Part shown: positions 5,191 to 44,556 of the stretch, in pieces
Layout: each line of letters opens with the position of its first letter
Numbering within the stretch: the stretch's first letter is position 1
Virus record (IMG/VR): IMGVR_UViG_3300025009_000019
From: a virus
Length of the DNA: 53,374 bases
Reading direction: 5' to 3' (one strand)
The notes under the pieces: model-generated
The model's database searches: none
What the model was told of the DNA's origin: nothing
The model's input: only the letters and a program-made list of their open reading frames with translations
Position numbers and translations under genes: made by a program

Positions 5191-6626
5191 ATTATAATAT
5201 CGTTTGTATGTTGATAAATAATAATTTCATCGCACCCTATCAAATCGGGTATGTCAGCCGACAAATCGAAATTATTAACGTCTGCTAATAAATTAACTCT
5301 ATTTGAATAGACTGAATCCAACGAGCTATCACCTATTAAAATACCTATTAAAAAATATGACTCCGCACTTAAACGTGATTGTTGTGCTTCGGCAAATTCG
5401 ACATCAATTTCAATAACTTGTTTTCCTGAATCGTTTGCTGACACTATTCTTTTTATTATTTCTGTGCCAACTTCCGCAGCTACATCAACAACACATCGCA
5501 AACCGTCATACATGAAATTTGTCTCTAAATCTGTGTAGGTATCTTCATACTCATTTTCGCTTGGTAAATATGAGACATATCCAACAATAGCTTCGTCTCC
5601 ACCTGCTACAATATTACCTACTTTACTAACAATAATTATAACTGTTGTTTTACTACCAATTATTAATCCACTTGCTGAATTTCCTGTTGATGTTTCGATA
5701 TAGCTTACTGAATCAATCGAATAAACATTTTCGTAACCGTTGAAATTTTCGTTAAAATCTCCGATTGAACCTTTCATTAAATCGACAATCTTAATTTTAG
5801 ACGTGTTGGGGTTCGATAATGCCGTTCTGAAATCGGTCTTATACACATATTTACATGAATTTAAACCGACTAAATCCTCACGAATAACTCCGTTTTGTAA
5901 ATTTTCAAGGTCGCCGTCTAAGTACCAAGGAGCGATTAAAAATATATGTTCTATCTCAAATTGTTGTTCATATCCTGAATCTTGAATGAATTTTACTCGA
6001 CAAGTTCCATCAACCCAATCTCTATAAGCTCCTAATGGCAACATATCAACGTATGTTGTTAATCGGTCGCCCTCTCCATCATCTAAACCAACTGCTCCAC
6101 TATAATATGCTTGGTCGTTTCCTGAGACCCTAGAAATTACGTTAAAATTTTCATCGTTTGGAATCAAACCATATGAATAAATCAAAGATGTTAGCCAACT
6201 TTTCCCATGCAAAAAACCACTTGATAAAATACCTGTGTTTTGCGGTGCTGCGGGTACTGACAATTGAACAATGCAATATAAATCTTCGACATACTCAACA
6301 GCGGCATCATTAGTTGTTGTTGAACTTCCTGCTAAATCGGTCGCCACAAAGTCCACGTTATCACCTATTGCGATACCGTCTTGAATAAACGAGCCGGCTT
6401 GTCGTTCTATTTTATATTTATCAGAGCCTAAAGTCGTAACACTCCATAAATACGTCATGTCGCCTTGAGCAAACCATTTAATCCCAATTTTTTGAACGAA
6501 CTTTATTTTCTCCATAACTGAGCCTGAGCAGTTATAAGTAAAATCAGTCGTTTCAGTTGCAAAATCTAAATCGTTTTTTAACTGATTGAAATATTTTTGT
6601 TCGTATATGGTTATCTGTACACTCAT
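5187..6626 (-). CDS. Hypothetical tail or baseplate protein
   Basis: 479-aa ORF in the tail module. Confidence 0.5.
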   Translation of the reverse strand: MSVQITIYEQKYFNQLKNDLDFATETTDFTYNCSGSVMEKIKFVQKIGIKWFAQGDMTYLWSVTTLGSDKYKIERQAGSFIQDGIAIGDNVDFVATDLAGSSTTTNDAAVEYVEDLYCIVQLSVPAAPQNTGILSSGFLHGKSWLTSLIYSYGLIPNDENFNVISRVSGNDQAYYSGAVGLDDGEGDRLTTYVDMLPLGAYRDWVDGTCRVKFIQDSGYEQQFEIEHIFLIAPWYLDGDLENLQNGVIREDLVGLNSCKYVYKTDFRTALSNPNTSKIKIVDLMKGSIGDFNENFNGYENVYSIDSVSYIETSTGNSASGLIIGSKTTVIIIVSKVGNIVAGGDEAIVGYVSYLPSENEYEDTYTDLETNFMYDGLRCVVDVAAEVGTEIIKRIVSANDSGKQVIEIDVEFAEAQQSRLSAESYFLIGILIGDSSLDSVYSNRVNLLADVNNFDLSADIPDLIGCDEIIIYQHTNDIII

Positions 6627-22400: not shown

Positions 22401-22544
22401 TTTAGAGTTGAAATTTGTATGTGATCAGCTTCTTTAAATTGCCACTTTAATTGTACCGTCTTCGTTATTTTAAATTCCACTTACGAACATTATGTTATTG
22501 ATTATTAATTATATGATGTTTGGTAACCATTCGGCAACCAACTT

Positions 22545-22590
22545 GTTATAAGCAAGGCAAAGACACTCCGAATAAACGTCCGTGCCAAAC
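22545..22590 (-). ncRNA. Structured element, family A copy 1: 31-nt hairpin (22556-22586) followed by the box GCTTATAAC
   Basis: Minus sense: GGCACGGACGUUUAUUCGGAGUGUCUUUGCC-UUGCUUAUAAC. It is near-identical to 40900-40930 and related to 33880-33925. The stem needs G-U pairs in the minus sense. Confidence 0.5.
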
Positions 22591-22595
22591 TTAAA

Positions 22596-23276
22596 TTAGT
22601 CGTTATAAGTTGACCATTCAGTTTCAATATTTCCCAAATCACATTCAATAGTACAACCCATTGCATATAATTTGAAAAGAAATAAATCAAACCCCCTTAA
22701 TCCTATTTCAGTTATAGGATGCAATGCAGCTCCTTCGATTGTTGGAGAATATAAGCTTTTTGATTTCCCGTCAATCATTAATTTATACCTGCACTGGTAT
22801 CTGTGCGTTTTCTTTTCCGCGCTTTCATCAAATGCTATATGAATAGTGCCATAATCTGAAACTTCATGGATAAAGGCAATTTCTCCGCTTTCACCGTATT
22901 CGTCAGGTATTACTTCCTCTTCTTTATATTTTTCAATAATTTCAGAAAGTTTCCATTCTTTCTTTTCTAAAGCACCAACAAAGTTTTTAATCATTTCTTT
23001 AGCTGGTGCAATTCCGATTTCAACAACACTTTTGTTTAATTCAAATTCTACTAAATCGGTAAGCGTTTTTGAATACTGAACAAAATCGAGTTTTTCAAAA
23101 CCTTCAATTATTTTAGCATTCAATTTTTCTTTGAACGACTTATTTACATCGCTCCAACTTGAAAGGGAATCATTTATAATTCCATTAATAAAACCAGTAA
23201 CTTGTTTTGTTACAATTTCATCAAGTTTACCGTTTTCGGTAAGTTCTTTAATTTTGTCACTAATCAATTTTTCCAT
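22596..23276 (-). CDS. Hypothetical protein, bracketed by the 10-bp inverted repeat GTTATAAGCA/TGCTTATAAC
   Basis: 226-aa ORF. The repeat arms are at 22545-22554 and 23324-23333. Confidence 0.55.
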   Translation of the reverse strand: MEKLISDKIKELTENGKLDEIVTKQVTGFINGIINDSLSSWSDVNKSFKEKLNAKIIEGFEKLDFVQYSKTLTDLVEFELNKSVVEIGIAPAKEMIKNFVGALEKKEWKLSEIIEKYKEEEVIPDEYGESGEIAFIHEVSDYGTIHIAFDESAEKKTHRYQCRYKLMIDGKSKSLYSPTIEGAALHPITEIGLRGFDLFLFKLYAMGCTIECDLGNIETEWSTYND

Positions 23277-23320: not shown

Positions 23321-23460
23321 CCCTGCTTATAACTTCGGCTAACCCGGCAAGTCAGGCAACCGTGGTTTCCGATCGGTGCAGCCCGTGTTAACTTTCGCTC
23401 TGATAGGAAAGTGAATCGCTTCGCACCCTGCCCTGCGTGTAGCCTTTAATGTTAGGCTTC
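23321..23460 (-). ncRNA. GC-enriched structured intergenic element (E2)
   Basis: Minus sense starts GAAGCCUAAC and ends GUUAUAAGC. Contains local hairpins AGCCU-N8-AGGCU and CGG-GUUAG-CCG. Shares GGCAGGG...CCUAUCAG with element 38662-38797. Confidence 0.45.
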
Positions 23461-23463
23461 ATG

Positions 23464-23640
23464 CTAAGAGCGCTCTTCGAACAATTTGCAGGAATCATTA
23501 TCTTCAACAACTCCTGTGTAATTGTCACAATCTTTATCGTTACTAAACTCAATATCGCACTGGTTATTCATGCAATATCTATCTTCAGGCTCTGAAAACA
23601 TCAATTCTGAGTGTTTACAGTTTTTACAAATTCTTTCCAT
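23464..23640 (-). CDS. 58-aa Cys-rich (zinc-ribbon-like) protein
   Basis: Hand translation: MERICKNCKHSELMFSEPEDRYCMNNQCDIEF... Contains CxxC and CxxxxC pairs. Confidence 0.4.
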   Translation of the reverse strand: MERICKNCKHSELMFSEPEDRYCMNNQCDIEFSNDKDCDNYTGVVEDNDSCKLFEERS

Positions 23641-23739
23641 TTTCTTTATGCTATTAGTTTAATAATCTGAAACAAAGCACGAAACGCCAATACTCAACCG
23701 TTACCATAAAACTACACACAATTTCACAATCATTCAAAT

Positions 23740-33214: not shown

Positions 33215-33523
33215 TTATTTTTTAGTTTTAGTTAATATATTTTCGTTTAAAAATACTTTGTTTTTACTTATGATATATTGGTAATCTTGCTTTGAAATGA
33301 AATTAAGCAATATCGTTAATTGTTCAATAAATTCTGAATCAGTTTGTAAATCAGGCATAGTAATTTCGATTCCGTTGTCGATTATTGCCATTATAAATTC
33401 GTTCGGATTGTCAAATACCCAATATTCAGAATAATACAGCGAATATTGGGTATAGCCTTTGTGTTTTTCAACAAGAATATTATACTCGTGAGAATCTTTT
33501 TTGTAAACTTTTACTACTTTCAT
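33215..33523 (-). CDS. Hypothetical protein
   Basis: 102-aa ORF. Confidence 0.45.
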   Translation of the reverse strand: MKVVKVYKKDSHEYNILVEKHKGYTQYSLYYSEYWVFDNPNEFIMAIIDNGIEITMPDLQTDSEFIEQLTILLNFISKQDYQYIISKNKVFLNENILTKTKK

Positions 33524-33574
33524 ATTTCTAATTTTACCGAAATTTAAATATTACGTTTTTATCTGCGAAATTTA

Positions 33575-33604
33575 TTTGACGAATGAATTTGATTATTTGA
33601 TGAA
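33575..33604 (-). promoter_or_regulatory. Two copies of the TTCGTCAAA / TTCATCAAA motif
   Basis: Plus-strand TTTGACGAA at 33575-83 and TTTGATGAA at 33596-604. Confidence 0.45.
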
Positions 33605-33608
33605 CGGA

Positions 33609-33836
33609 TTAAAACGGTAGTATTTCTCGCTCAGGTTTAAAAAGCATCGGTTTTAATTTAGTCAACGAAATAAACGTTTTTCCAAACCAATAACCAATAC
33701 ATCTATTATTATAAGATTGCTTTATTTGCCTATCGGTTTTTAAATTATATAGCAAATTATCGTTTCCAAATCCATAGCCGTCAACATCTTTTATTAACCA
33801 TTTTATTTTTATATGTTTTTCAATAGATAATTTCAT
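33609..33836 (-). CDS. 75-aa protein, possibly NUMOD4-like DNA-binding (start moved to MKLSIEKH)
   Basis: IKWLIKDVDGYGFGNDNLLYNLKTDRQIK loosely resembles the W..I.gy.gY.vS..G.v motif of homing-endonuclease N-terminal domains. The track ORF extended to 34049 runs through a non-coding element. Confidence 0.35.
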   Translation of the reverse strand: MKLSIEKHIKIKWLIKDVDGYGFGNDNLLYNLKTDRQIKQSYNNRCIGYWFGKTFISLTKLKPMLFKPEREILPF

Positions 33837-33879
33837 TGATACTGAATTGTTTATGACTTGGTAAACTTTCAACAACCAA

Positions 33880-34071
33880 CTTGTTAGGCACAAGCGGGTA
33901 CGATAAACGACCGTAGATAATTTTGCTGCAAAAAGACAAGAAAATGGAAACAGCCGACCCACAAAACAGCACATTTGCAAACCGCTCCAGCCGACACAAA
34001 ACCAAAGTTTGCAAAAGAGCTGTTTTCTTGCCGACGCACCCAAGCCCACCCACCACCCTATTGGATGACAA
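33880..34071 (-). ncRNA. Non-coding structured region E3: family-A-like hairpin plus box (33880-33925) and a G/U-rich (minus sense) element colinear with 38093-38237
   Basis: CTTGTTAGGCAC (33880-91) is the reverse complement of 38238-49. The 8-mers AGCACATT, CAAAACCA and AAAGAGCT occur in the same order as in E4. Confidence 0.45.
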
Positions 34072-34121
34072 GTTGAAAGACTGTTAATAAATTTTTGATA
34101 ATAGATACTTTTTATTTATAG

Positions 34122-34156
34122 GGACATATTATATTTGGACAATATTTGTCAGGACT
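34122..34156 (+). promoter_or_regulatory. Candidate C-box operator and -7 box upstream of the controller gene
   Basis: GGACATATTATATTTGGACAATATTTGTCAGGAC contains repeated GGACA, the inverted GACA-N5-TGTC, and TATATTTG (34130-37) matching TAnnTTTG. Confidence 0.35.
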
Positions 34157-34164
34157 AAAATGTT

Positions 34165-34479
34165 ATGATACAAAAAGAATCTTTTGGAGAGTTAATTAGA
34201 AAACTTAGGGAAGGTGAGGGACTTCCTCTTAGGAAAGTTGCAGCCCAGCTTGACATTGACCCATCGACACTTGGGAAAATAGAAAGAAATGAACGAACTG
34301 CGAATAAAGAAATGATTGAAAAATTGGGTGAAATTTTTTCAATAGACTCAGAACAACTACTAATCTCATTTTTGAGTGACAAAGTTGCTTTTGAATTAAT
34401 GAAAGAAGACTGTGCTAATGATGTCCTAAAGGTTGCAGAAGAGAAGGTTAAGTATTTTAAGAAGACAACTAAAATCTAA
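34165..34479 (+). CDS. XRE-family HTH controller (C) protein of the R-M island
   Basis: LRKVAAQLDIDPSTLGKIERNER is a classic HTH. It is the first gene of the only plus-strand operon. Confidence 0.6.
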   Translation: MIQKESFGELIRKLREGEGLPLRKVAAQLDIDPSTLGKIERNERTANKEMIEKLGEIFSIDSEQLLISFLSDKVAFELMKEDCANDVLKVAEEKVKYFKKTTKI

Positions 34480-34494
34480 TAGGTTCGAGTAAAA

Positions 34495-36831
34495 ATGACA
34501 GTAAAAGAAAAATCATATATTCTACAAGAAGAAGCTCCACAATTAATGGTTTCCGACCAACAATTGGAATTGTTTCGTGATTTGGAATTAGCAAAATACA
34601 ACGATAGTGATTTATATAACGGCAAATCTAAAAATAAATTAAATGTAGTTTCTCTATTTACTGGTGCTGGTGGGTTAGACATAGGTTTTAAAGAAGCAGG
34701 GTTTAACTGTGTATTTGCATCTGATATTATGCCTCAAGCAGAGACTACTTACAATTATAATTTTCCATCAACACCTTTCGTAAGAAAAGACGTCAGGTTG
34801 CTTTCTAAGGAAGAAATAGAGAATTTGATTGGTAAAAACAAAATTGATGTGCTAATTGGTGGACCTCCTTGTCAAGGTTTCTCAAATATGGGGAATAAAA
34901 ATTCATCAGACCCTAGAAATTATCTGTTTGAAAATTATGTGAAGATTGTGGAGACAATACAACCCAAATGTTTTCTTTTTGAAAATGTGAAAGGATTATT
35001 TACAATGTTTGAAGGTCGTTTTTTTGATAAAGTCGTAAATGCATTTTTAGAAATTGGTTATAATGTTTCTTACTCTATGATTGATTCGTCTAAATATGGC
35101 GTACCTCAAAAAAGGGAGAGGATAATAATTTTCGGTACTAAGATTAATAGGTCATTTAGATTCCCTAAACCAAATTCAAAATCATTTGGTAGAATAAGTG
35201 CCTTTTCAAATGTTGGTGAAGCTATAAACGATTTAATGCAACTAGAAAATAGATACCCAAATCATGTTCCATTAAATCACAATGAAATAGTTGTTCAAAG
35301 ATATAAACTTATCCCAGAAGGTGGAAAATTGCCAAAACCTGAGGAACTTCCTGAAGAAATTAGAAGGAAAAATTTTGGAAATACATACACAAGATTAAAC
35401 AGAAAGGAAGTCTCATCAACAATAGTTCCTGGCAATAATGCTTTACCTGTTCATCCAGTTTTAAATAGGAGTTTGACAGCTCGTGAAGCTGCAAGAATTC
35501 AAACGTTTCCTGATTATTTTATTTTTAGAGGGGATAGACGTTCCCAATGTATTCTTGTTGGTAATGCTGTGCCTCCATTACTTGCAGCCAAGTTGGCAGA
35601 ATGCGTTGCAAATTTTATTAATGAAATTGAATATGATGGAATAAGTCCTGATGGTCAAGCAAAAGTTGGCACTAAATTTTCTCGTCATAAAGTTAACACA
35701 GTAAAGAAAAATGGGCGTGCAAATTTAAAATTCGCTGATTTATTTAGTGGTGTTGGTGGTTTTACGCAAGGCTTAGAAGCTGCTGGACTTGAATGTGTTT
35801 TAGGTGCAGATTTTGATGAATATGCTGTTGAAGCATATCGTAGAAACCATTCTTCCCATGAATGTTTGAAAATAGACCTAGCTGACCCTAAAAATCAAAA
35901 GATAGTAGCTGATAGGTTGAAAAAAGAAAAAGTTGATTTAATAGTTGGAGGGCCTCCTTGTCAAGGATTTTCTATTTTTGGGAAAAGACGATTTGTAAAC
36001 ACAAAGAATCATGATTTAAAAAAAGACAAAAGAAACGATTTGGTGTTTGCATTTGCAAATATTGTAATAAGGTCAAATGCAAACTGGTTTATTATGGAAA
36101 ATGTTCCAGGTATTCTTTCAGCACATAGTGGTTCTTATGTTGAGGAAGTAAGAAATTATTTTTTAAAACATAAATATAAAACGGAAATAAAAATCATAAA
36201 TGCAGCAGATTATGGTGTTCCTCAGTTGAGAAAGCGCTTTATTTTGTTTGGTACTAAGACAGACCTCATGATTCCATTTCCAAAACCAAAATATTTTGAA
36301 ACACCTGAATCATGGCAACTGCCATACAGAACAGTTGGTGAAGTTTTAACTGACTTATCTAACGAAAAAACATTAGGCAAATATCAAAATCATTTTGCAC
36401 CAAACCATTCTCCAATAATTGTGGAAAGATTTTCATACATAAAAGAAGGACAAAAATTGGAAATTGAATCTTTACCAGAACACTTGAAGAATGGTACTAA
36501 GACTGGCAAACCAATGGCAAACTACAGTCATGTTTTTAAACGTTTACATAGGAAAAAACCTGCTGGCACTATTGTTCCTGGTCATAATGCATTCCCTGTT
36601 CATCCAACATTAAATAGAACTTTAACTGTGAGGGAAGCTGCAAGAATTCAAACGTTTCCAGATAATTATGAATTTGTTGGTCCAATAATAAATCAATGTT
36701 TACAAGTAGGTAATGCTTTCCCTTGTTTAGTCGCTCAAATTTTTGGGGAAAGGCTTAGAACAGTAATAAATAAAGAATGGAGTGAAGAAAGTGCGACTCA
36801 TTTAGCTAAATACTCAATGTTAGAAAAATAA
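34495..36831 (+). CDS. Fused double C5-cytosine DNA methyltransferase (two complete Dcm-like domains)
   Basis: Domain 1: FTGAGGLDIGF, GGPPCQGFS, FENVKGL, QKRERIIIFG, GNAVPP. Domain 2: FSGVGGFTQGL, GGPPCQGFS, MENVPGI, QLRKRFILFG, GNAFPC. Confidence 0.85.
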   Translation: MTVKEKSYILQEEAPQLMVSDQQLELFRDLELAKYNDSDLYNGKSKNKLNVVSLFTGAGGLDIGFKEAGFNCVFASDIMPQAETTYNYNFPSTPFVRKDVRLLSKEEIENLIGKNKIDVLIGGPPCQGFSNMGNKNSSDPRNYLFENYVKIVETIQPKCFLFENVKGLFTMFEGRFFDKVVNAFLEIGYNVSYSMIDSSKYGVPQKRERIIIFGTKINRSFRFPKPNSKSFGRISAFSNVGEAINDLMQLENRYPNHVPLNHNEIVVQRYKLIPEGGKLPKPEELPEEIRRKNFGNTYTRLNRKEVSSTIVPGNNALPVHPVLNRSLTAREAARIQTFPDYFIFRGDRRSQCILVGNAVPPLLAAKLAECVANFINEIEYDGISPDGQAKVGTKFSRHKVNTVKKNGRANLKFADLFSGVGGFTQGLEAAGLECVLGADFDEYAVEAYRRNHSSHECLKIDLADPKNQKIVADRLKKEKVDLIVGGPPCQGFSIFGKRRFVNTKNHDLKKDKRNDLVFAFANIVIRSNANWFIMENVPGILSAHSGSYVEEVRNYFLKHKYKTEIKIINAADYGVPQLRKRFILFGTKTDLMIPFPKPKYFETPESWQLPYRTVGEVLTDLSNEKTLGKYQNHFAPNHSPIIVERFSYIKEGQKLEIESLPEHLKNGTKTGKPMANYSHVFKRLHRKKPAGTIVPGHNAFPVHPTLNRTLTVREAARIQTFPDNYEFVGPIINQCLQVGNAFPCLVAQIFGERLRTVINKEWSEESATHLAKYSMLEK

Positions 36832-36835
36832 TATT

Positions 36836-38092
36836 ATGTCAGTAAATCATCATCTTCTTGCAAAAGCAACAACTGATTCAGTTTTAGCAAATTTTAAATC
36901 AGGTGCATGGAAATGTTGCACAGATGTAGGTTTAGATTTTTATAGAGTTGGTTGTGATAGCAGTTTCCCTTCTCCTGATGCAGCCTTCTACGATGATGCA
37001 AAAAAGTTAATGGTAACATTTGAGTTCAAGCCACCCACAGAAACTAAAAGAGGTATTTTGACGGGGTTGGGTCAATCTATTGCATATTTAAATAGTAGCA
37101 ACTTGTCATACCTTATTGTGCCACAAACATTAGAGGATTATGATATTGGTGGCTACATGACAAATTTATATCAAAACCAAATTGAAGAAAGTCTACCAGT
37201 CGGTTTAATTGTTTATGAGAACAATGCACCAACAAAAGTTTCGCTTATTCATAATGTAAATACTCTAACTAAAACAAAGGAATTTAAAGCTATAGCAAGT
37301 GGTAGGTTTTGGGCAAAACACTTAGATATGCCAATACCTTTATTTCATTTAATTCTCCATTGCTATTATTTAAAAAAAATAGGCCAAATTACTGGCGATG
37401 CATTTGCTTATTGTTGGGAAACATATTTAGTTCCAAATAGTGTTTTAAAAACATTAACTCCAACTGCAATTAAGGATATGAATGGAGATTTCATTGAAAC
37501 TTTGTCTGGAAGAAAGAATATTATCTTTTTTGAGAAGAAAATAGCAGCACTTAAAAAGTTATCTGGAGCAACTAAAGGAAAGGCTATAGCAGACTTACGA
37601 CAAGATGCTGATACATCATTTATTGGAGATAATTATTACAATTCTATTAAGAAAAATTTTGTTACATTTTTAAAACATATTGGAGTAGTTGATTCAATTG
37701 GTCATTTAACAGAGGAGGGTTTTAAACTTTATCATTTAGGCTTAGTTAATGGTCCAAACAGTAAAATATTCCAAGACTACTTTACACAAACGGTTTTAAT
37801 TACTGGTCACCATTTAGATTTGATTTTTGATTTGGACAACTTATGTAATCAATTCAGGGGCAAATATGAGATTATGAAAATCAGAGAAATAATGCTGGAA
37901 GATTATGAGGCGAGAGGAATGATTAAAAGAAATCCAAATAGAAAAGCTGGTGATGAAAGTAAGGTTGAGTTTCTAAAATATGAATTTATTTTATGGAATT
38001 CATTAAATTTAACAGTAAAGACAAATGGTACACCTGATGTTTCTTTTAATTGGAAAAAAATAACAGAAGTTTGTTCTATGCCTGATTTATAA
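36836..38092 (+). CDS. Restriction endonuclease candidate (N-terminal PD-ExK motif)
   Basis: SPDAAFYDDAKKLMVTFEFKPP gives D...ExK. It starts 4 nt downstream of the methyltransferase stop. Confidence 0.5.
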   Translation: MSVNHHLLAKATTDSVLANFKSGAWKCCTDVGLDFYRVGCDSSFPSPDAAFYDDAKKLMVTFEFKPPTETKRGILTGLGQSIAYLNSSNLSYLIVPQTLEDYDIGGYMTNLYQNQIEESLPVGLIVYENNAPTKVSLIHNVNTLTKTKEFKAIASGRFWAKHLDMPIPLFHLILHCYYLKKIGQITGDAFAYCWETYLVPNSVLKTLTPTAIKDMNGDFIETLSGRKNIIFFEKKIAALKKLSGATKGKAIADLRQDADTSFIGDNYYNSIKKNFVTFLKHIGVVDSIGHLTEEGFKLYHLGLVNGPNSKIFQDYFTQTVLITGHHLDLIFDLDNLCNQFRGKYEIMKIREIMLEDYEARGMIKRNPNRKAGDESKVEFLKYEFILWNSLNLTVKTNGTPDVSFNWKKITEVCSMPDL

Positions 38093-38237
38093 GCCCACGC
38101 TTCGTAGTCAAGCACATTGGCTGGTCGCACAAAAATCCAACACGCGACCAAAACCAGCCAAAGAGCTTGCCTACCCAAACGCACGTGGAAACATTGCAGC
38201 AAATTGACAGATAAAATGATAAAAATAAAAATCGCCA
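38093..38237 (-). ncRNA. Non-coding structured region E4, colinear with part of E3
   Basis: Hairpin GGTCGC-N15-GCGACC nested in CTGG/CCAG. Shares ordered 8-mers with 33968-34021. An AT-rich tract at 38195-38235 follows the E5 stem in the minus sense, giving a terminator-like U-run. Confidence 0.4.
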
Positions 38238-38375
38238 GTGCCTAACAAGCGGTCATAAAACATTGGGGGTTAAGTGGTTAATCGAGCGTTCTACCTCGCA
38301 TCAAGGTTCGGTATCGGGGGATACATTCGCAGCTCCGAAAACCCCAACGTTTCATACCGCCGTCCGTTATAGGCA
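38238..38375 (-). ncRNA. Structured RNA candidate E5, homolog of E7
   Basis: 19-bp closing stem 38249-68 / 38342-60 has two G-U pairs and one bulge in the minus sense (A-C mismatches in the plus sense). Outer boxes are TGCCTATAAC (minus sense, 38375-66) and GTTAGGCA. Inner hairpin GUAUC-CCCC-GAUAC. A roughly 60-nt core is conserved with 40046-40179. Confidence 0.55.
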
Positions 38376-38645
38376 ATACGGTTTGGTGCATTTAATAAAC
38401 TTTGGTTTTTTGTTCAAATAAATGAATTCGTTCCACCAACCAGTACAAGGTAATATCCAATATTGAAAACTATACCATTGGTAGGTTTTTGTTTTCCCCC
38501 CAGTTCCTCTTGATGCTATATTACCATCTGCCATTAAATCGAAACTATGTAATGTATAGTTTTCAATTCGCTTCTCAGTACATTTTGTAAGTCGAACAAA
38601 AAACCACTGAAAGAAAAATACGTTTACTGCTTTTAATTTAGTCAT
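38367..38645 (-). CDS. Hypothetical 92-aa protein, exactly bracketed by the 10-bp inverted repeat GTTATAGGCA/TGCCTATAAC
   Basis: The stop codon lies inside the box at 38366-75. The partner box at 38662-71 lies 16 nt upstream of the ATG. Confidence 0.45.
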   Translation of the reverse strand: MTKLKAVNVFFFQWFFVRLTKCTEKRIENYTLHSFDLMADGNIASRGTGGKTKTYQWYSFQYWILPCTGWWNEFIYLNKKPKFIKCTKPYCL

Positions 38646-38661
38646 ATCGTTAAAATTGCAC

Positions 38662-38797
38662 TGCCTATAACAACAAATATAAAACAGCAGGGCAGTATTA
38701 CTGAATTATAATGTGTGCTACTATTCATCATTTGTGGTCGGCTGATAGGGTTTTGCACTTAATCCCTGCCGTTTCATATTTGCAGCCGTTACCTGCA
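38662..38797 (-). ncRNA. Structured RNA candidate E6
   Basis: 18-bp stem 38675-92 / 38764-81 is perfect in the minus sense with two G-U pairs. The 5' box is TGCAGGTAAC (minus sense) and the 3' box GTTATAGGCA. Confidence 0.55.
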
Positions 38798-38819
38798 AGT
38801 GTAAGAAACTGCACAGCCA

Positions 38820-40004
38820 TTAATGAGCCTTGAAATTATAGAGTGGTTTAATCACTCCGATAATATCAACGGTTTCAGTAATTGCAGATTTAATTTCATC
38901 AATTGATTTATAAGCCTGTGGAGCTTCATCCAAAGTTTCAGTAACAACCGAAGTTGTATAAACATCTTTCATTGTTTCAACAAAATCAGCCATATTAATA
39001 GCTTCTTTTGCTTTGCTTCGGCTCATTAATCTACCTGCTCCATGAGGTGCTGAATAGTTCCAGTTTTCATTTCCTTTGCCAATACACAATAAAGAACCAT
39101 CACGCATATTAATTGGAATAAGCAATGTTTCCCCATTTTCAGCAGAAACCGCACCTTTTCTCAAAATCATGCGTTTAAAATCAATGTAGTTGTGTATTGT
39201 TTCAAATCGTTCAGCTTCTTGCAAACCAGCTTCTTTTAAAATAATTTCAGCCATTGTTTCACGGTTCAAAGTCGCAAATTTTTGAACAATAGCCATATCA
39301 TTCATATAGTCGGCAAAGTTATTACCAGTTAAAAAGGCTAAATCCTTATCGGTTACAGGCTTTTTAATCTTCTTAATTTCGGCTGCAATTTCTTTTTCTC
39401 TACCTTCTGCTTTTAGTTTGTCAATTGCATTTTTAACAACTTTGCTCATTTCATTGGCATTTTGAAAGGCTTTATCTTGGTAATACTTACAAGTATCACC
39501 GCCTAATTTTCGGCTTCCTGAATGTATAATCAAATACAGTTCGCCAGTTATTTCATGTTTGCCGACTTCAATAAAATGGTTTCCACCACCAAGCGAACCA
39601 ATTGAAAGCACTGCACGGCTTAAATTAACGTGTTTTTCACAGCGTAAATTTGTAAAGTCGAAATCTTTCTTTGATTTTTCGTGAACACTAAAACCACAAG
39701 GCACTTTAGTTTTAATTACTTCGTCCAGTTTTTCAAAGTCAATTTCTTTGTTTTTGAGCTTAATTGTAAGCATTCCGCAACCAATATCAACACCTACCAA
39801 ATTTGGAGTTACTTTGTCGGTTATAGTTATTGTTGTACCAACTGTACAACCTTTACCAGCGTGTGCATCAGGCATAATTCGCACATTTGCATTTTCATAC
39901 GCTTCAAAGTTTACCAGTTTTTTAATTTGGTCATACGCTTCAAATTCAAATGTTTCAGCGAATATTAGCGTTTCAATTCCTTTGTTATTTTTAATCGTTT
40001 TCAT
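38820..40004 (-). CDS. rtcB: RNA 3'-phosphate/2',3'-cyclic-phosphate to 5'-OH ligase RtcB
   Basis: Motifs DAHAGKGCTVGTT, GGGNHFIE, HSGSRKLG and PHGAGR in a 394-aa protein. Confidence 0.85.
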   Translation of the reverse strand: MKTIKNNKGIETLIFAETFEFEAYDQIKKLVNFEAYENANVRIMPDAHAGKGCTVGTTITITDKVTPNLVGVDIGCGMLTIKLKNKEIDFEKLDEVIKTKVPCGFSVHEKSKKDFDFTNLRCEKHVNLSRAVLSIGSLGGGNHFIEVGKHEITGELYLIIHSGSRKLGGDTCKYYQDKAFQNANEMSKVVKNAIDKLKAEGREKEIAAEIKKIKKPVTDKDLAFLTGNNFADYMNDMAIVQKFATLNRETMAEIILKEAGLQEAERFETIHNYIDFKRMILRKGAVSAENGETLLIPINMRDGSLLCIGKGNENWNYSAPHGAGRLMSRSKAKEAINMADFVETMKDVYTTSVVTETLDEAPQAYKSIDEIKSAITETVDIIGVIKPLYNFKAH

Positions 40005-40045
40005 ATCGTAAAATTAAGAATATTAATAAATTAGTACAAACACCA

Positions 40046-40179
40046 GCAGGTAACACAAGCTATAACCAATAAAGGTTTTAGTGGTTAATCAAACGTTGTA
40101 GCTCGCATCCAGTTCGGTATCGGTTGATAGTGCATCGCTCCGTAATCCTTTACTGGTAATAGCCACAAACGTTACCTGC
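40046..40179 (-). ncRNA. Structured RNA candidate E7, homolog of E5, immediately upstream of rtcB
   Basis: Self-closing 9-bp boxes GCAGGTAAC / GTTACCTGC (40046-54 / 40171-79). 17-bp stem 40059-75 / 40147-63 with one G-U and one U-U in the minus sense. Conserved core CGGAGC..UAUC-NNCC-GAUACCGAAC..GAUGCGAG..GAUUAACCACU. Confidence 0.55.
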
Positions 40180-40182
40180 AAT

Positions 40183-40476
40183 TTATTTTACCCCACGCTC
40201 CTTCTGCATTTGTTCCAGTCGTTCTTGAAATCGGCTTTTCTTGCCTACCTCTGTAAAGTTTTTAATTTCGCTCTTGTTTTTAACTGCGAACACAGCACTT
40301 GCAATAAACATCAATAGTGCTACTCCTGCACATATTAAAATCATCCAAACGCTCCACCAATTAAAAACTTTGTCCTTCACCAAGTAGAGTATAAATTCTA
40401 CTATCGCCCAAATTGATGATGCTACTGCTCCTAAGTAGGCAAGAAAAGCCGTTACTCCTGTTAATATTGTTTTCAT
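40183..40476 (-). CDS. 97-aa membrane protein (three hydrophobic segments)
   Basis: Hydrophobic segments GVTAFLAYLGAVASSIWAIVEFILYLV and WMILICAGVALLMFIASAVFAV. Confidence 0.5.
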   Translation of the reverse strand: MKTILTGVTAFLAYLGAVASSIWAIVEFILYLVKDKVFNWWSVWMILICAGVALLMFIASAVFAVKNKSEIKNFTEVGKKSRFQERLEQMQKERGVK

Positions 40477-40517
40477 TTTTAAATTTGTTTAATGCCTCCC
40501 TTAGTAAAATAAACTGA

Positions 40518-40620
40518 CAGGTAACAAGGGCTTGGCAAAATGCCACCAATCAGCTTTGTGCCTTGAATTTTATCGGTTGCTTGGTGGCACTATCGCCAAG
40601 CCCCGTCCGTTATAGCCAAT
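40518..40620 (-). ncRNA. Structured RNA candidate E8
   Basis: Nested perfect stems GGGCTTGGC/GCCAAGCCC (40528-36 / 40595-603) and TGCCACCAA/TTGGTGGCA (40541-49 / 40581-89). Shares the 13-mer CCGTCCGTTATAG (40603-15) with E5 (38360-72). Confidence 0.55.
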
Positions 40621-40868
40621 TAAAAAATCCACATCGCATTATCAATTGCAGCTCGATGACAAATTGAACAGGCTACACTTCCGCTTTTAACTGATTTATA
40701 ATTATCATCATACCATATACCAGCTTCTTTTATATCTTCAAAAAAATACTGTTTATCAAAAGCTTCGTAAACCATAGCATTTTCATTACATACATGGTCA
40801 GTTGGTTCGCCTCCGCACATTATTGCAGTAGATTCGCCTAAGTCTATTATTTTACATCCTTGTCTCAT
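40620..40868 (-). CDS. 82-aa Cys-rich protein
   Basis: Motifs MCGGEPTDHVCN...ACSICH. Confidence 0.45.
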   Translation of the reverse strand: MRQGCKIIDLGESTAIMCGGEPTDHVCNENAMVYEAFDKQYFFEDIKEAGIWYDDNYKSVKSGSVACSICHRAAIDNAMWIF

Positions 40869-40873
40869 TTATT

Positions 40874-40943
40874 GGTTATAGCTTCATCGTTAGTAGCAAG
40901 GCAAAGACGCTCCGATTGAACGTCCGTGCCAAGCATTTAGATT
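40874..40943 (-). ncRNA. Structured element, family A copy 3 (hairpin 40900-40930) plus TAAC-type boxes
   Basis: Minus sense GGCACGGACGUUCAAUCGGAGCGUCUUUGCC-UUGCUACUAAC. Differs from copy 1 by a C/U change that keeps a pair (G-C versus G-U). Confidence 0.5.
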
Positions 40944-41066
40944 TTAGTCTGTGATAATTGACAATTGTCCACAGGCTGCGCCATTTTCAATCTCACTTTG
41001 AGTTGCTACGGCAACGGCAAAATCATAGCCGTTTTCTTCTAATTGACTTTTAATTTGTTCAGTCAT
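40944..41066 (-). CDS. Possible 40-aa ORF (MTEQIKSQLEENGYDFAVAV...)
   Basis: Hand translation. Starts 11 nt after the radical-SAM stop. Confidence 0.25.
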   Translation of the reverse strand: MTEQIKSQLEENGYDFAVAVATQSEIENGAACGQLSIITD

Positions 41067-41077
41067 TGCTTTATGTA

Positions 41078-41860
41078 TTAAATTAAATTAATTCCCTCTA
41101 CTACTCCACTTCCAAGCCCATTCTTTTCAGAAGTAGTATTCGGGTTTATTGGGCTTATTTTTATGAAAAATTTATCTTTATCAAAATGTTGTTTAATCTT
41201 TTTAATATCAAAGTCTTTTTCTTCTACCAGCGTTAAGTTTATGGTAGTTTTCAAATTGCTTTCGGTTCTTACATTTCCAAGTTGCTCAATGGTCATTTTG
41301 TTTTTGAATGGTATTAGCCAATTCCTATGCTCTTCATCCAAGCTATGCAAAGAAAGTTGCAGCGTCAGATTGTCTTTTATCCAAGTAAAATCAGCATCTT
41401 TCAAACCAATAGTTGAAATATAGTGGTGTGTATTTGGGTAGTGTTGGCTTATTTTTTCAATTGCCTTTTTTACGTTTTCAATATTTAAAAACGGTTCTCC
41501 CATTCGGGTATAGTTTATTTTAAACTCTTTACTATCCAATGGGTTTATGTTGTTTTTAGCAATTATAAACTCAACTTGGGTTGTAATTTCTTGCCAAGTC
41601 AAATTACGCCAACTTTTCATTTGTCCAGTTGCACAAAATTTGCATCTTACAGGGCATCCACTCATTACGCTTACTCCAACCATCCAGCGTTCCGAACGGT
41701 CGCTTAATTCGTAATTGTCTAGCATATTTTGCTTTCTACCTATTGCATCTTTTGTATAGTAAGGTAAAAAAGTATCGGTAGTTTCAATTAACATTCCGTC
41801 CTCTAATTCGAGGCAATAAACGCTACCGTTTTTAAAGTTCTTTTGTTTTTTAATTTTCAT
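41078..41860 (-). CDS. RlmN/Cfr-like radical-SAM enzyme, short form lacking both methyl-transfer cysteines
   Basis: The cluster SGCPVRCKFCATGQ and the motifs MGEPFLN, ISTIG, LQLSLHS and IKISPINP parallel RlmN GCALECKFC, MGMGEPLLN, LSTSG, LAISLHA and INLIPWNP. The C118-equivalent is Gly/Val, and the protein ends before the C355 region. Confidence 0.6.
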   Translation of the reverse strand: MKIKKQKNFKNGSVYCLELEDGMLIETTDTFLPYYTKDAIGRKQNMLDNYELSDRSERWMVGVSVMSGCPVRCKFCATGQMKSWRNLTWQEITTQVEFIIAKNNINPLDSKEFKINYTRMGEPFLNIENVKKAIEKISQHYPNTHHYISTIGLKDADFTWIKDNLTLQLSLHSLDEEHRNWLIPFKNKMTIEQLGNVRTESNLKTTINLTLVEEKDFDIKKIKQHFDKDKFFIKISPINPNTTSEKNGLGSGVVEGINLI

Positions 41861-41907
41861 TGTATCAATATTTTAAGATTAATAATAAAAACAATGGCAC
41901 TTGGTTT

Positions 41908-41998
41908 CCTAACCGATGGCTTGTCAAACACTGTATCTTATTTTCATAAGCGAAACTTGTACAGGCAAAGCCACTGTTCTTATTCTAAACCGTTAGCC
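41908..41998 (-). ncRNA. Structured RNA candidate E10
   Basis: Minus sense: 5' box GGCUAAC-GGUU, stems GUGGCUU/AAGCCAU and CUGUA/UACAG, GNRA-capped hairpin CUUAU-GAAA-AUAAG, and 3' box GUUAGG. Confidence 0.45.
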
Positions 41999-42010
41999 TA
42001 ACCGCTACCG

Positions 42011-42301
42011 CTACCGATTAACCATATTAATACTCTTTTCTTTTTTCAATTCCTCTAAACAAACCGCTTCAATCATGTCGAAGTGGTCTTTATCAATGAT
42101 GTGAGTGATGTCGATTAGTCGCTTTACACGCTCATTATCGTTGTGAACAATTACCTCAATACTATCTAGGTCAATCTCGAAGTCTTGACATGAACAAATA
42201 TCGGCATCTGATTCCTCGTTTTGAACGAAGCCTTTGCACAACAACGGTATAATATTATTGTAACCGTCATTGTAGTTTATTTCCAATCTAAAGTTATCCA
42301 T
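42011..42301 (-). CDS. Acidic hypothetical protein
   Basis: 96-aa ORF. Confidence 0.45.
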   Translation of the reverse strand: MDNFRLEINYNDGYNNIIPLLCKGFVQNEESDADICSCQDFEIDLDSIEVIVHNDNERVKRLIDITHIIDKDHFDMIEAVCLEELKKEKSINMVNR

Positions 42302-42303
42302 TT

Positions 42304-42522
42304 TTATACGTGTTTAGTAAATGAAGCATAACACGCAATTACTACGCTATGTAGCTCTGTTATTTCTTCTAAATTCAACTGCGAAATATTGTGAAATATC
42401 TCTTGCTTTTCAGTTGTACAAGTTAATTTAGGTTCTTTACCGTCTTCTTTTTCAATCTCAATTTGAAATCTTCCGAAGTCATACTCGATTGTACGAGTTG
42501 TTCGTTTGTGTTTTAGTTCCAT
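42304..42522 (-). CDS. Small hypothetical protein
   Basis: 72-aa ORF. Confidence 0.4.
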   Translation of the reverse strand: MELKHKRTTRTIEYDFGRFQIEIEKEDGKEPKLTCTTEKQEIFHNISQLNLEEITELHSVVIACYASFTKHV

Positions 42523-42523
42523 T

Positions 42524-42739
42524 TTATTTAGTTTTTAAAATTATTTCTGCGTAAAGTTCCATGCTTCTATGTATCATTCTGTCTAGCGTTTGCACTCCAA
42601 CACTCTGTCGCATAACAAACGTCAAACATTCTGACCGTATTTGTTCACGTGAATAGCCGTCATTTATCATTTTCGTTTTTTGATTAATAAATTCAAGCGT
42701 TTTATTTACATGGGTGTCCATTGGGTGTCTTAATTCCAT
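42524..42739 (-). CDS. Small hypothetical protein
   Basis: 71-aa ORF. Confidence 0.4.
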   Translation of the reverse strand: MELRHPMDTHVNKTLEFINQKTKMINDGYSREQIRSECLTFVMRQSVGVQTLDRMIHRSMELYAEIILKTK

Positions 42740-42841
42740 TTTTATTTTATTAATGTTAGTAAATTATCAATAATACTTTCAAGTCCGCACATTAACAATA
42801 CAGCTATTACTACGACTGTATAAGCTAATATTTTTTCTACT

Positions 42842-43036
42842 TTATTTTTCATCGTATTGAATTTTTATGTTAGTGTAAATTTTTCCTTTTTCGTCTGTTA
42901 TTTTTTTAATTTCTAAACTCCACCCACTTTTATATGCAAAATCTAAAGCCGACAATATGCAATACTCAATAGAAAAAGCGTGAATTGTTTCGATATTTCC
43001 ATTCGCAAATTCGACTTTAAATTGTGTTCGTTTCAT
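42842..43036 (-). CDS. Small hypothetical protein
   Basis: 64-aa ORF. Confidence 0.4.
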   Translation of the reverse strand: MKRTQFKVEFANGNIETIHAFSIEYCILSALDFAYKSGWSLEIKKITDEKGKIYTNIKIQYDEK

Positions 43037-43038
43037 GG

Positions 43039-43209
43039 TTATTGTTCTATATGGTTATAAATTAATTTCATTACCCAAGCGTTTTCAAACTCATAAATTC
43101 CGCATATTTCGCAAGCCTCTTGTTCGGTGTCGTAATAGTTTATTTGACCTTTATCATTCTTCATAAAACCCATATCTCTAAGGTCTATAATCACATATTG
43201 TCCTTCCAT
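43039..43209 (-). CDS. Possible 56-aa ORF (MEGQYVIIDLRDMGFMKNDKG...)
   Basis: Hand translation. It is the first ORF after the terminator and motif region. Confidence 0.3.
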   Translation of the reverse strand: MEGQYVIIDLRDMGFMKNDKGQINYYDTEQEACEICGIYEFENAWVMKLIYNHIEQ

Positions 43210-43272
43210 TTTTAAATTAAGTTTAGTTTATGATTACGAAAATAATCATTATATCAATACGAAAATCTAAAT

Positions 43273-43302
43273 TTTGACGAACGTATTTATAATTTTGACG
43301 AA
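43273..43302 (-). promoter_or_regulatory. Two copies of the TTCGTCAAA motif
   Basis: Plus-strand TTTGACGAA at 43273-81 and 43294-302, just downstream (minus sense) of the endolysin terminator. Confidence 0.5.
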
Positions 43303-43304
43303 TG

Positions 43305-43335
43305 TAAATAAAAAAGGCTCGAATTAACAAGCCTT
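43305..43335 (-). terminator. Rho-independent terminator after the endolysin gene
   Basis: Minus sense AAGGCU-UGUUAAUUCG-AGCCUU followed by UUUUUAU. The stem overlaps the stop codon. Confidence 0.5.
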
Positions 43336-43765
43336 ATAATATTGGTGTGAAATATAAATCACATTCCGCTTTTCGTCTGCGAACTAATCCATTTAATACT
43401 TTGCCTTTTGCTGTGATGTAATGCTCCGTAAACCACTTTTGTATATAAATATCTAATGCCTTTTCATTAATCAACTTAAATAGTGTTTCCGAGCCTCCTG
43501 TATTATAGCAATAAGAAACTAAGGCATCGAACTGATTTTGATTAACAACCACCTTTAAATGATTATTAACGTACTTTTCCCATTGTTCAATGTCCTCTTT
43601 TAGTCTAAATTCGGCTTGCTCTCTAGTTATTTCCATTCCCATAGTTATGTTTTTAGTCGTTCCGTAACCAATTGTAACAACACCAGCAGGACATAAATAG
43701 GCTTTTAAACTTAAAGATTCAAACTCTTTGATTAAATTAATTCCTCTTTCGCTTATCTTTTGCAT
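43334..43765 (-). CDS. Endolysin, T4-lysozyme-like (GH24)
   Basis: GINLIKEFESLSLKAYLCPAGVVTIGYGT matches the E-x8-(D/C)-x5-T lysozyme N-terminal signature region. Confidence 0.7.
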   Translation of the reverse strand: MQKISERGINLIKEFESLSLKAYLCPAGVVTIGYGTTKNITMGMEITREQAEFRLKEDIEQWEKYVNNHLKVVVNQNQFDALVSYCYNTGGSETLFKLINEKALDIYIQKWFTEHYITAKGKVLNGLVRRRKAECDLYFTPIL

Positions 43766-43976
43766 ACTTATTTAGTTTTTTATATAATTCTCGATATGGT
43801 TTTAACGATGGCTTTCTAAACCCTATTGGATTAACGTATCGACTAATCTCATTAAGATTCTCAACTTCGTTGTCAAGTTGTTTATAAATCTCGTTTATGT
43901 TGTTTAGCCTCTCGCTTATCAACTCGTTTAGCTTTTTTCTCAACACGTTTCTCTTTTCTAGTTTTATCCGGTTCAA
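43737..43976 (-). CDS. Coiled-coil small protein (overlaps 43882..44139 by 95 nt; one of the two may be mis-called)
   Basis: 79-aa ORF. Confidence 0.3.
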   Translation of the reverse strand: MNRIKLEKRNVLRKKLNELISERLNNINEIYKQLDNEVENLNEISRYVNPIGFRKPSLKPYRELYKKLNKYAKDKRKRN

Positions 43977-44139
43977 TTACCGGTTCATTATTTACCTCAA
44001 TCGGTGCTTTGTTTCCTTTTACCTTAATATCATTGTCAATATTAGTAACCTCGTCAGGTTTGCTTAAATTATCTTTAAAAATATAGCCCCAAATAAACCC
44101 TAAAGTTAGATAAAATATTATTTTCTGCCACCATTTCAT
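43882..44139 (-). CDS. Small N-terminally membrane-anchored protein (holin or spanin candidate)
   Basis: TM segment WWQKIIFYLTLGFIWGYIF followed by a Lys-rich tail. Confidence 0.4.
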   Translation of the reverse strand: MKWWQKIIFYLTLGFIWGYIFKDNLSKPDEVTNIDNDIKVKGNKAPIEVNNEPVIEPDKTRKEKRVEKKAKRVDKREAKQHKRDL

Positions 44140-44142
44140 AAC

Positions 44143-44556
44143 TCAAATTTTGTGTTCAGTTCCTTTTTCATTCAAATTTTTAGGAGCAAGAACATTATTC
44201 AATACAAATCTTATAATCACTTGTATTGGTTGAAGATACCATAGTGTTGAAGTTGTAGGCATCTTTGCGATAAACATTCCAAGTATTGTTAATATGCTAC
44301 TTAAAATCCATATAATCCAAGTCCAGATTGAGCTTTCGGATTCGGGCTTGTTTTCGTACTCGTTTTGAATTTCAGTATATAATTCTGCTCTGAATAAAGA
44401 ATCTTGCAACAATGCAAGTGCTTCATTTTTTAATTCACTTTTTAAAGAATCGGAGATAACAAATTCTTTATTTTCTACTGTAATTTGTGGTTTTGGCTGT
44501 GCAAAGCTAACTGTTAAAGTTAGAACTAATGCGATTGATAAGATTAAATTTTTCAT
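44143..44556 (-). CDS. Signal-peptide protein with C-terminal TM segments (lysis-module candidate)
   Basis: N-terminus MKNLILSIALVLTLTVSFAQ, later IWTWIIWILSSILTILGMFIA. Confidence 0.45.
   Translation of the reverse strand: MKNLILSIALVLTLTVSFAQPKPQITVENKEFVISDSLKSELKNEALALLQDSLFRAELYTEIQNEYENKPESESSIWTWIIWILSSILTILGMFIAKMPTTSTLWYLQPIQVIIRFVLNNVLAPKNLNEKGTEHKI

Follow-up and report, generated by a model that had tools for sequence, protein, structure and literature searches.

Accessory Genes of a Metagenomic Phage Lie in Hairpin-Delimited Cassette Arrays That Resemble Integron Arrays

Accessory genes and hairpin elements of the phage genome

The virus record IMGVR_UViG_3300025009_000019, analysed here over its entire length of 53.4 kb (the window), comes from a groundwater/sediment-type metagenome and is a phage genome that is complete and circularly permuted. 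In its main accessory array, the genes are separated on the minus strand by hairpin elements of the form TAAC(G)...(T)GTTA, 90–127 nt in length. These elements belong to a family of hairpins that occur in arrays, have covarying stems and obey a complementarity rule across the genes between them. Cassettes common to different contigs break exactly at the hairpin cores, and in related phages the arrays are recurrently linked to a recombinase gene.

Identical contigs of the same size (~53.3 kb) are present in SRR1658472 and SAMN03203004, and all nine contigs found through exact protein matches represented the same phage with the same array. The window has a G+C content of 30% and carries nearly all of its genes on the minus strand. 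Its structural and replication genes code for the portal, capsid, terminase, lysozyme, Toprim primase-helicase and exonuclease, and 13 Pfam families were assigned from 43 open reading frames (ORFs). A PAPS-reductase/DUF3440 protein is also encoded and hints at a role in the modification of DNA or nucleotides. The blastn search of INPHARED revealed no close relatives among isolated phages, as only the rtcB and radical-SAM genes were matched, and the relatives of a flanking 427-aa protein in IMG/VR were only 26–30% identical.

The main array runs from 42002 down to 33883 and contains the genes for a radical SAM protein, orf82, orf97, rtcB, orf92 and an inverted restriction–modification (R-M) island. 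Its features are given below, with the bit scores of the family covariance model R1. The bases past GTTA of a hairpin are called the box and those before the TAAC of the next hairpin box'. The long stems and the four box pairs described in the first-pass annotation were all found in place.

42001–42016, minus strand: short tandem GGTAGCGGTAGCGGT, directly upstream of the left boundary
41992–42002, minus strand: left boundary of the array, GTTAGGCTAAC (GTTA 42002–41999, TAAC 41995–41992)
41910–41995, minus strand: Ea, a degenerate hairpin with TAAC and GTTA kept and the stem decayed (R1 14.4 bits, E 0.34 with filters off)
40889–41909, minus strand: radical-SAM cassette with the ORF 41078–41860 (Pfam Radical_SAM) and a small ORF 40944–41066
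40868–40888, minus strand: GATGAAGCTATAACCAATAAA, what is left of the 5' arm of a hairpin, joined to the orf82 start and recognised by comparison with the family consensus
40620–40868, minus strand: cassette ORF orf82, no family match (Pfam and others)
40522–40612, minus strand: Ec, a divergent 91-nt hairpin with the ends TAACGGAC...CTTGTTA (R1 13.9 bits)
40175–40521, minus strand: orf97 module with a 97-aa membrane ORF (40183–40476), boxes GTTACCTG / CAGGTAAC
40051–40174, minus strand: Ed, a type-A consensus hairpin (R1 146.5 bits), ~90% identical to copies in >50 contigs
38792–40050, minus strand: rtcB module with the ORF 38820–40004 (Pfam RtcB), boxes GTTACCTGC / GCAGGTAAC
38668–38791, minus strand: hairpin Ee (R1 53.5 bits)
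38367–38667, minus strand: orf92 module with the ORF 38367–38645, boxes GTTATAGGCA / TGCCTATAAC
38243–38369, minus strand: hairpin Ef with a type-A-related interior (R1 99.8 bits)
33887–38242, plus strand: inverted R-M module (by Pfam) with reversed GC skew, boxes GTTAGGCAC / GTGCCTAAC
34165–34479, 34495–36831 and 36836–38092, plus strand: R-M island genes, namely an HTH (helix-turn-helix) C-protein, a fused double C5-methyltransferase and a 418-aa ORF
33848–33886, minus strand: terminal half-site of the main array and attI-like backbone site, TAAC (33886–33883) followed directly by AAGTTGGTTGTTGAAAGTTTACCAAGTCATAAACA

The folds of the elements were evaluated as minus-strand RNA against dinucleotide shuffles. 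The z-scores were −4.8 for Ec (40520–40625), −3.5 for Ed (40040–40185), −3.6 for Ee (38655–38800) and −3.9 for Ef (38235–38380), and the value of −1.35 for Ea (41880–42015) was not significant. The radical-SAM cassette contains an additional short GC hairpin, Eb (40900–40930; z −4.2 for 40885–40950), and its terminal TTGCTACTAAC lies at 40899–40889. The conserved GC hairpin GGCACGGACGTTNANTCGGAGNGTCTTTGCC occurs at this position, at 22556–22586 of the window and near position 2084 of contig L009. In two unrelated cassettes it is located just 5' of a terminal TTGCTnnTAAC, and it may be a terminator or a part of the site. The 3' box of Ec is complementary to the 5' box of Ed, the stop codon of orf92 is formed by the TAA of TAAC, and the entire inverted R-M island is enclosed by the box pair CTTGTTAGGCAC / GTGCCTAACAAG. 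In the island's methyltransferase, two C5-cytosine methyltransferase domains are fused, and the two halves still share 76–81% DNA identity over stretches of 60–100 nt. No Pfam or PHROG family was found for the neighbouring 418-aa ORF, the presumed endonuclease.

No match to Rfam 15 at the gathering score was obtained for the whole window, and at E ≤ 10 the region 33500–44500 gave chance-level matches only. The scan of the window for tRNA and tmRNA was also empty. Ribozyme, Y-RNA-like and tRNA-like identities were dropped.

A second, small array is located on the minus strand at 23703–22545, beyond the stretch first noted. It consists of the following features.

23677–23703, minus strand: collapsed hairpin remnant TAACGGTTGAGTATTGGCGTTTCGTGC, start of the second array
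23464–23640, minus strand: small Cys-rich cassette ORF, ending in ...TTAGCATGAAGCC directly before TAAC
23330–23454, minus strand: type-B hairpin of a second subfamily (R1 20.4 bits, weak), also present in contigs L009 and L023
22545–23329, minus strand: cassette with a 226-aa ORF (22596–23276, phrog_2600), box GTTATAAGCA / TGCTTATAAC around the ORF
22512–22544, minus strand: second copy of the attI-like backbone site, AAGTTGGTTGCCGAATGGTTACCAAACATCATA

The type-B hairpin, for which the R1 match spans 23324–23460, is 79.5% identical over 190 nt to positions 6393–6575 of L009. The cassette of the 226-aa ORF contains an Eb-like GC hairpin (22556–22586), followed by the terminal TTGCTTATAAC at 22555–22545.

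Both arrays of the window end in the same manner. The main array terminates as GTGCCTAAC joined directly to AAGTTGGTTGTTGAAAGTTTACCAAGTCATAAACA, leaving 46 nt to the start codon (ATG, 33836) of a 75-aa gene, and the second array as TTGCTTATAAC joined to AAGTTGGTTGCCGAATGGTTACCAAACATCATA. In each case, box'-TAAC is followed by the same ~33-nt backbone sequence (AAGTTGGTTG...). The presence of two copies of this sequence, each directly after a cassette half-site, argues for site-specific insertion. The search of IMG/VR for the attI-like sequence gave no match.

A covarying hairpin family and the exchange of its cassettes

The hairpins Ed and Ef share a core of ~80 nt. Exact 17/18-mers of Ed retrieved ~60 homologous copies from IMG/VR, the JGI/ENA metagenomes (anaerobic digesters, sediments and peat among them) and one metagenome-assembled Bacteroidetes genome of GTDB. 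The earliest motif scan of IMG/VR, performed with too strict a pattern, had given no match, and blastn of the hairpin consensus against isolated phages gave none. The covariance model R1 then detected more than 140 copies in the loci fetched from viral and metagenomic contigs. They lie in same-strand arrays of up to nine hairpins, and their lengths range from ~60 to 140 nt. Neighbouring hairpins are separated by a median of 494 nt (89 intervals), and in 81 of these intervals the longest ORF is on the hairpin strand. The phages carrying this system are probably phages of Bacteroidota.

The alignment of 106 copies showed that each site consists of an R-type stem (TAACG/TGTTA and the boxes), a short unpaired spacer that is asymmetric (3–4 nt versus 1 nt), a long covarying stem of 19 bp and an interior of 0–70 nt. 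AAC and GTT are nearly invariant. Paired states make up 95.9% of the cells, compensatory changes were seen at 18 of the 19 pairs of the long stem, and the covariation score was 0.59, compared with 0.125 for shuffled alignments and ≤0.12 for slid registers. As the alignment was fitted to the model, it favours pairing, though the size of the effect and the many types of pairs make an artefact unlikely. A G·U (G·T) pair is kept at three positions, in 98/105, 87 and 102/104 sequences, so that the coding strand folds better. With DNA parameters, it was the better folder in 98 of 115 copies, which agrees with the first-pass remark that the stems improve in the mRNA sense through G-U pairs. The 106-copy alignment revealed no conserved bulged extrahelical bases; the strand asymmetry is given by the fixed G·T wobbles in their place.

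The type-A consensus, TAACGTTGAAGCTATGACCAGTAAAGG...CCTTTATTGGTTATAGCTTGTGTTA, has a conserved interior of 65 nt. This interior (e.g., 40078–40146 of the window) is conserved at ~90% across contigs from very different environments, with GGAGCGATGCACTATCAACCGATAC... and GGGCTTCGTGCCTGTCAAAATACAC... as its two variants. A search for a supported structure in it with RNAalifold was negative but had no power, since the type-A copies are too alike. Downstream of the hairpins, the ~45–60 nt from GTTA to the next start codon can be grouped into a small number of A/T-rich leader classes, such as GTTAGCCGTTCGGTTTTTATT and GTTAGCGTTTCGTGCTTTATT, which were seen repeatedly 3' of many hairpins (L034, L038, L102 and 40005–40050 of the window). 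These leaders may be cassette-borne promoters or translation leaders.

Past the GTTA of a hairpin, the bases are reverse-complementary to those before the TAAC of the next one, and all four clear pairs in the window obey this rule. The same complementarity exists between R' and R'' of integron cassettes. A genome-wide count of GTT+6-mer...reverse-complementary 6-mer+AAC pairs within 5 kb did not bear out the significance expected for ORF-bracketing repeats in general, as 67 such pairs were observed and 63 ± 8 were found in dinucleotide shuffles. This naive test was therefore replaced by a position-specific test of adjacent hairpins. Among 78 adjacent pairs from many contigs, half had at least six consecutive complementary bases beyond GTT/AAC, compared with 1% of 4872 random pairs; when both flanks of a single hairpin were compared with each other, the proportion was 2%. 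In this form, the first-pass proposal that the outer half of each core matches across the ORF held. The significance of the boxes derives solely from their position directly at the hairpin ends. Most pairs failing the rule span long intervals, where a hairpin has probably been overlooked. The terminal repeats often reach ~12 nt, with a T·G wobble or a bulge. The full consensus RYYYAAC/GTTRRRY is followed only sometimes, e.g., in GCCTAAC/GTTAGGC.

Comparison of the contigs showed where the identity between common cassettes ends. The window and contig L028/L114 have only Ed and the rtcB module in common (40182–38788, 72.5% identical), and the similarity ends at the TAAC of Ee. The radical-SAM stretch is 95% identical over 999 nt to positions 2042–3040 of L009, an otherwise unrelated viral contig of 64.6 kb. 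This identity stops exactly after ...CTTGCTACTAAC (TAAC), where a full hairpin follows in L009 and a remnant in the window. One ORF was found after three different hairpins, with the homology beginning directly 3' of GTTA, and another one before two different hairpins, with the homology stopping at ...CACAAC. These exact breakpoints, directly after GTTA and directly before AAC, indicate that ORF modules and hairpins reassort at both ends of the hairpin. The prediction that exchange boundaries coincide with the boxes is supported by the cassettes recurring in other contigs, which lose identity exactly at TAAC or GTTA.

The cargo of the arrays is typical of phage accessory or anti-defence genes and includes five or six DNA methyltransferases, YopX, Bro-N, MazG, GNAT, R-M and RtcB, and most cassettes belong to no known family. 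An IS605 OrfB/TnpB-type gene (L022, 956–2071) lies a few kb from the hairpin array of a 72-kb viral contig.

Recombinase genes beside the arrays of related phages

The window itself contains two terminal sites and no recombinase gene. The tblastn search with two related recombinases gave no match in it, the hidden Markov model of the recombinase family gave none at E ≤ 1, and no integrase, resolvase or transposase was among the Pfam families of the 43 ORFs. The absence of an integrase, claimed from the open reading frames alone, was therefore upheld. According to Pfam, none of ten flanking ORFs was an integrase, and no HUH transposase linked to the arrays was found.

Such a gene is present in related phages. 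In the contigs L028/L114 and L010/L112, the array ends in box'-TAAC and a tyrosine recombinase of 271–283 aa starts ~50 nt further on the same strand, and these two recombinases are only 25% identical. The array-linked Xer-like recombinases of the relatives have 271–290 aa, and ~60 close homologues of 275–300 aa were found. Eleven recombinase contexts were examined (L112, L113, L114, L023 and L115–L121), and in nine of them hairpins lay directly upstream on the strand of the recombinase. The upstream hairpins are clear in L115, L116, L117, L119 and L120 and weak in L121. In eight of the nine (L112, L114–L117, L119–L121), box'-TAAC is located 40–63 nt before the start codon and is followed by a CATAAACAC-like motif, a terminal geometry shared by the main array of the window. 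In the ninth context, L023, a split recombinase gene lies downstream of the array.

The linked recombinases differ from integron integrases. Their scores with TIGR02249, the model of the integron integrase, were 83–101 bits, compared with a cut-off of 265, and they aligned to it in two pieces, skipping the model positions ~180–237, the region of the IntI-specific insertion. This insertion is essential for the function of integrons (PMC8138268). The best family for them was the archaeal XerA type, followed by XerC/D, with scores below every curated cut-off. The closest solved structures were XerA and XerD, ahead of IntI4.

Likeness to integrons and competing explanations

Like integrons and clusters of attC sites lacking an integrase (CALINs), the arrays have same-strand cassettes of ~0.5 kb, mostly with a single ORF, which are separated by imperfect palindromes of 60–140 nt that carry ...AAC and GTT... 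at their two ends, and the outer core halves are complementary across the cassette. In the relatives, the half-site end of the array lies beside a tyrosine recombinase gene, as in an integron, and the window genome resembles a CALIN in having no recombinase. Operationally, a CALIN is defined through the attC model, as at least two attC sites within ~4 kb of each other with no integron integrase nearby; the window has no integrase, and several of its hairpins lie within 1.5 kb of one another. The palindrome of attC sites (~57–141 nt, ...AAC / GTT... ends) is also seen in the hairpins of the family. The differences are that the hairpins form a distinct, sequence-conserved family marked by fixed G·T wobbles and not by bulged extrahelical bases; that the boxes run 6–7 (up to ~12) nt past GTT/AAC; that the ORFs of the arrays point towards the recombinase gene and not away from it; that the ORF modules reassort at both hairpin ends; that the linked recombinase is without the IntI-specific insertion; and that integrons are rare in the phylum of the probable hosts. 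The intI gene with this insertion that marks a complete integron was found neither in the window nor in the relatives. The integron core is written as GTTRRRY with a division after the first G (PMC9892861). We do not assign the window array strictly to the integron family, as the recombinase lacks the integron feature and no conserved extrahelical bases were seen.

Other systems share single traits with the arrays. The repeats of sedentary chromosomal integrons, e.g., those of Vibrio cholerae, are long attC sites (~120–130 nt) that accompany a bona fide IntI in the chromosomes of bacteria, and they are likewise highly similar within an array and across related genomes. The window sites differ in lying in phage genomes, with several subtypes in one array. 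The integration of CTX-phi at dif by XerCD is an Xer recombination on folded single-stranded DNA and offers a precedent for an Xer-type tyrosine recombinase using a one-strand hairpin, but there the whole phage genome enters the host chromosome and nothing like a cassette array is present. The promoter–stem-loop (PeSL) modular shuffling of T4-type phages and the RNase III intercistronic hairpins of T7 serve transcription, RNA processing or homology for general recombination, and they too are conserved intergenic stem-loops around small phage accessory genes. To our knowledge, these elements have no cassette-specific complementary boxes, terminal half-site or linked recombinase.

We consider it probable that the main array of the window is an orphan array of mobile cassettes belonging to a phage-borne, integron-like system with its own recombinase. 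Such an array without an integrase in a virulent-looking phage had been proposed in the first-pass annotation, and the arrays of the family, the cassette rule, the stem covariation and the recurring cassettes support it. Each accessory module is delimited as GTTA-box...box'-TAAC and spaced from the next one by a hairpin-forming site. Under this reading, site-specific recombination would excise the modules, insert them and reshuffle them among phages. This would take place at the invariant AAC/GTT cores of what is presumably a folded single strand. The small Xer-like tyrosine recombinase encoded immediately 3' of the array in related phages is the likely enzyme and would act on these sites. Exact breakpoints of both kinds occur, those that would assign a hairpin to the ORF upstream of it, as in a classical integron, and those that would assign it to the ORF downstream. 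The terminal half-sites, the rtcB unit and the 3' breakpoint of the radical-SAM cassette favour a crossover between TAA and C on the coding strand. This strand, also the better folder, would then be the counterpart of the strand that recombines in integrons. As the window phage has no recombinase gene, both of its arrays would be rearranged only in trans, e.g., during co-infection.

Several observations weigh against this reading. The 5' edge of the common radical-SAM cassette lies ~20 nt inside the module and not at GTTA. Neighbouring hairpins do not strictly travel together with an ORF, and breakpoints at both hairpin ends are not predicted by the classical one-crossover model of integrons; those directly after GTTA show that a crossover between TAA and C cannot be the whole story. 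The strong conservation of the 65-nt type-A interior is not explained by recombination. One homologue (L118, 47% identical; ERZ21862665 ctg8794l, 3.04 Mb) lies in the middle of a prophage-like region of a bacterial chromosome without detectable hairpins, where it may serve lysogeny, dimer resolution or another function, and the context of the recombinase in L113 is ambiguous. In addition, the conserved place of the recombinase between the accessory and structural genes could alone put it beside the arrays. Finally, the hairpins are co-directional with transcription and better folded in the mRNA sense, which an RNA function would fit too.

This last point leads to an explanation at the RNA level, in which the hairpins serve intercistronic processing, stability or termination (RNase III-type), box and box' loop out the ORFs, and the modules are swapped by homologous or microhomology recombination. 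Homology-driven exchange between conserved elements has been proposed for the promoter–stem-loop cassettes of T4-type phages. The co-orientation with the genes in 81/89 intervals and the better folding of the coding strand in 98/115 copies fit this explanation, as do the fixed G·U pairs, which become A·C mismatches on the opposite strand, the T·G wobbles that the terminal inverted repeats carry in the coding sense as well, the conserved interior and the conserved ~50-nt leader after many copies. However, it leaves unexplained the exact-base breakpoints at TAAC/GTTA between hairpins of differing sequence, the half-site that closes every array at a constant spacing to a recombinase gene, the identity of the window's two terminal backbone sites and the inverted module that keeps its boxes, and no Rfam family was matched. 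We therefore regard it as unlikely as a full account. Of the RNA alternative raised in the first-pass annotation, the part concerning strand asymmetry stands, and the part that would have to account for the mobile units, terminal half-sites and linked recombinase does not. A secondary role of the hairpins in RNA may coexist with the role in DNA.

It appears quite improbable that the array is a classical CALIN, i.e., ordinary attC sites that stem from an integron of a bacterium and are substrates of a host IntI, in spite of the matching layout and GTT/AAC cores and of one box pair reading GCCTAAC/GTTAGGC. In phage genomes, 17 CALINs have been described, virulent phages included, and five of six tested phage attC sites recombined with IntI1 (Qi et al. 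2023, PMC9892861). The only failure in the IntI1 × attI1 assay was P12002L_attC1, a site presented as a canonical attC and predicted by HattCI only (PMC9892861). We found that this site is a short-form member of the hairpin family of the window, reading TGCTAAC GGCTAC GGCTAAACGG...CCGTTTTAGCC AT TGTTAGGC. It lies between methyltransferase genes and differs from Ed and Ef in its length of 55–60 nt, without the ~65-nt interior. R1 detected at least five short-form copies flanking methyltransferase genes in the Polaribacter phage P12002L (NC_028924). Judging from the Figure 2 legend and the text of PMC9892861, at least four of these copies appear to have gone unreported by IntegronFinder or HattCI+Infernal. 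The HattCI prediction favours a CALIN, and the failed recombination of that site and the apparently unreported further copies oppose it. Integrons are almost absent from Bacteroidetes (PMC9024848), so that a host IntI is an unlikely driver. The phage-type cargo, the linked recombinase, which is not an IntI, and the lack of conserved bulged extrahelical bases also speak against ordinary attC sites.

Selfish miniature elements inserting beside TAAC, such as miniature inverted-repeat transposable elements, repetitive extragenic palindromes or IS200/IS605-type elements, would leave the genes themselves immobile. The long terminal inverted repeats, the conserved interior, the many near-identical copies, the fixed flanking tetranucleotide and the IS605 OrfB/TnpB gene in the array locus of L022 resemble such elements. 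Yet there is no target-site duplication, the flank of each hairpin is complementary to the flank of the next element and not to its own other flank, the units recurring in other genomes are the ORF modules, and no HUH transposase is linked to the arrays. We regard this explanation as very improbable.

A broader version of the favoured reading, an orphan array within a phage-borne integron-like system, is put forward here only tentatively, as it seems to us somewhat less probable than its negation. Phages, probably those of Bacteroidota, may possess an integron analogue of their own, consisting of a compact Xer-like tyrosine recombinase without the IntI insertion, an attI-like site upstream of its gene and a hairpin family marked by G·T pairs. 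It would capture accessory and anti-defence genes and move them directly between phage genomes, with orphan arrays like the two of the window serviced in trans. Cassette capture would then have arisen independently in phages, or the analogue would be related to the Xer-like ancestor of integrons.

The occurrence of attC clusters in virulent phages was already published in 2023; what is added here is the hairpin family, its arrays and the linkage to a recombinase in relatives. A literature search, incomplete in coverage, revealed no description of these three. The copies in P12002L suggest that at least one large family of such sites escapes the attC detectors now in use.

Integrons are the textbook gene-capture device of bacteria and are treated as a bacterial invention tied to IntI. 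If the reading as an integron-like phage system is true, hairpin-based cassette capture works with a simpler recombinase, and the modular mosaicism of phage accessory regions, with their methyltransferases, R-M systems, RtcB and many unknown genes, would have a molecular mechanism. The hairpin model would then also be a searchable marker for thousands of small phage genes selected for mobility, many of them probably acting in counter-defence.

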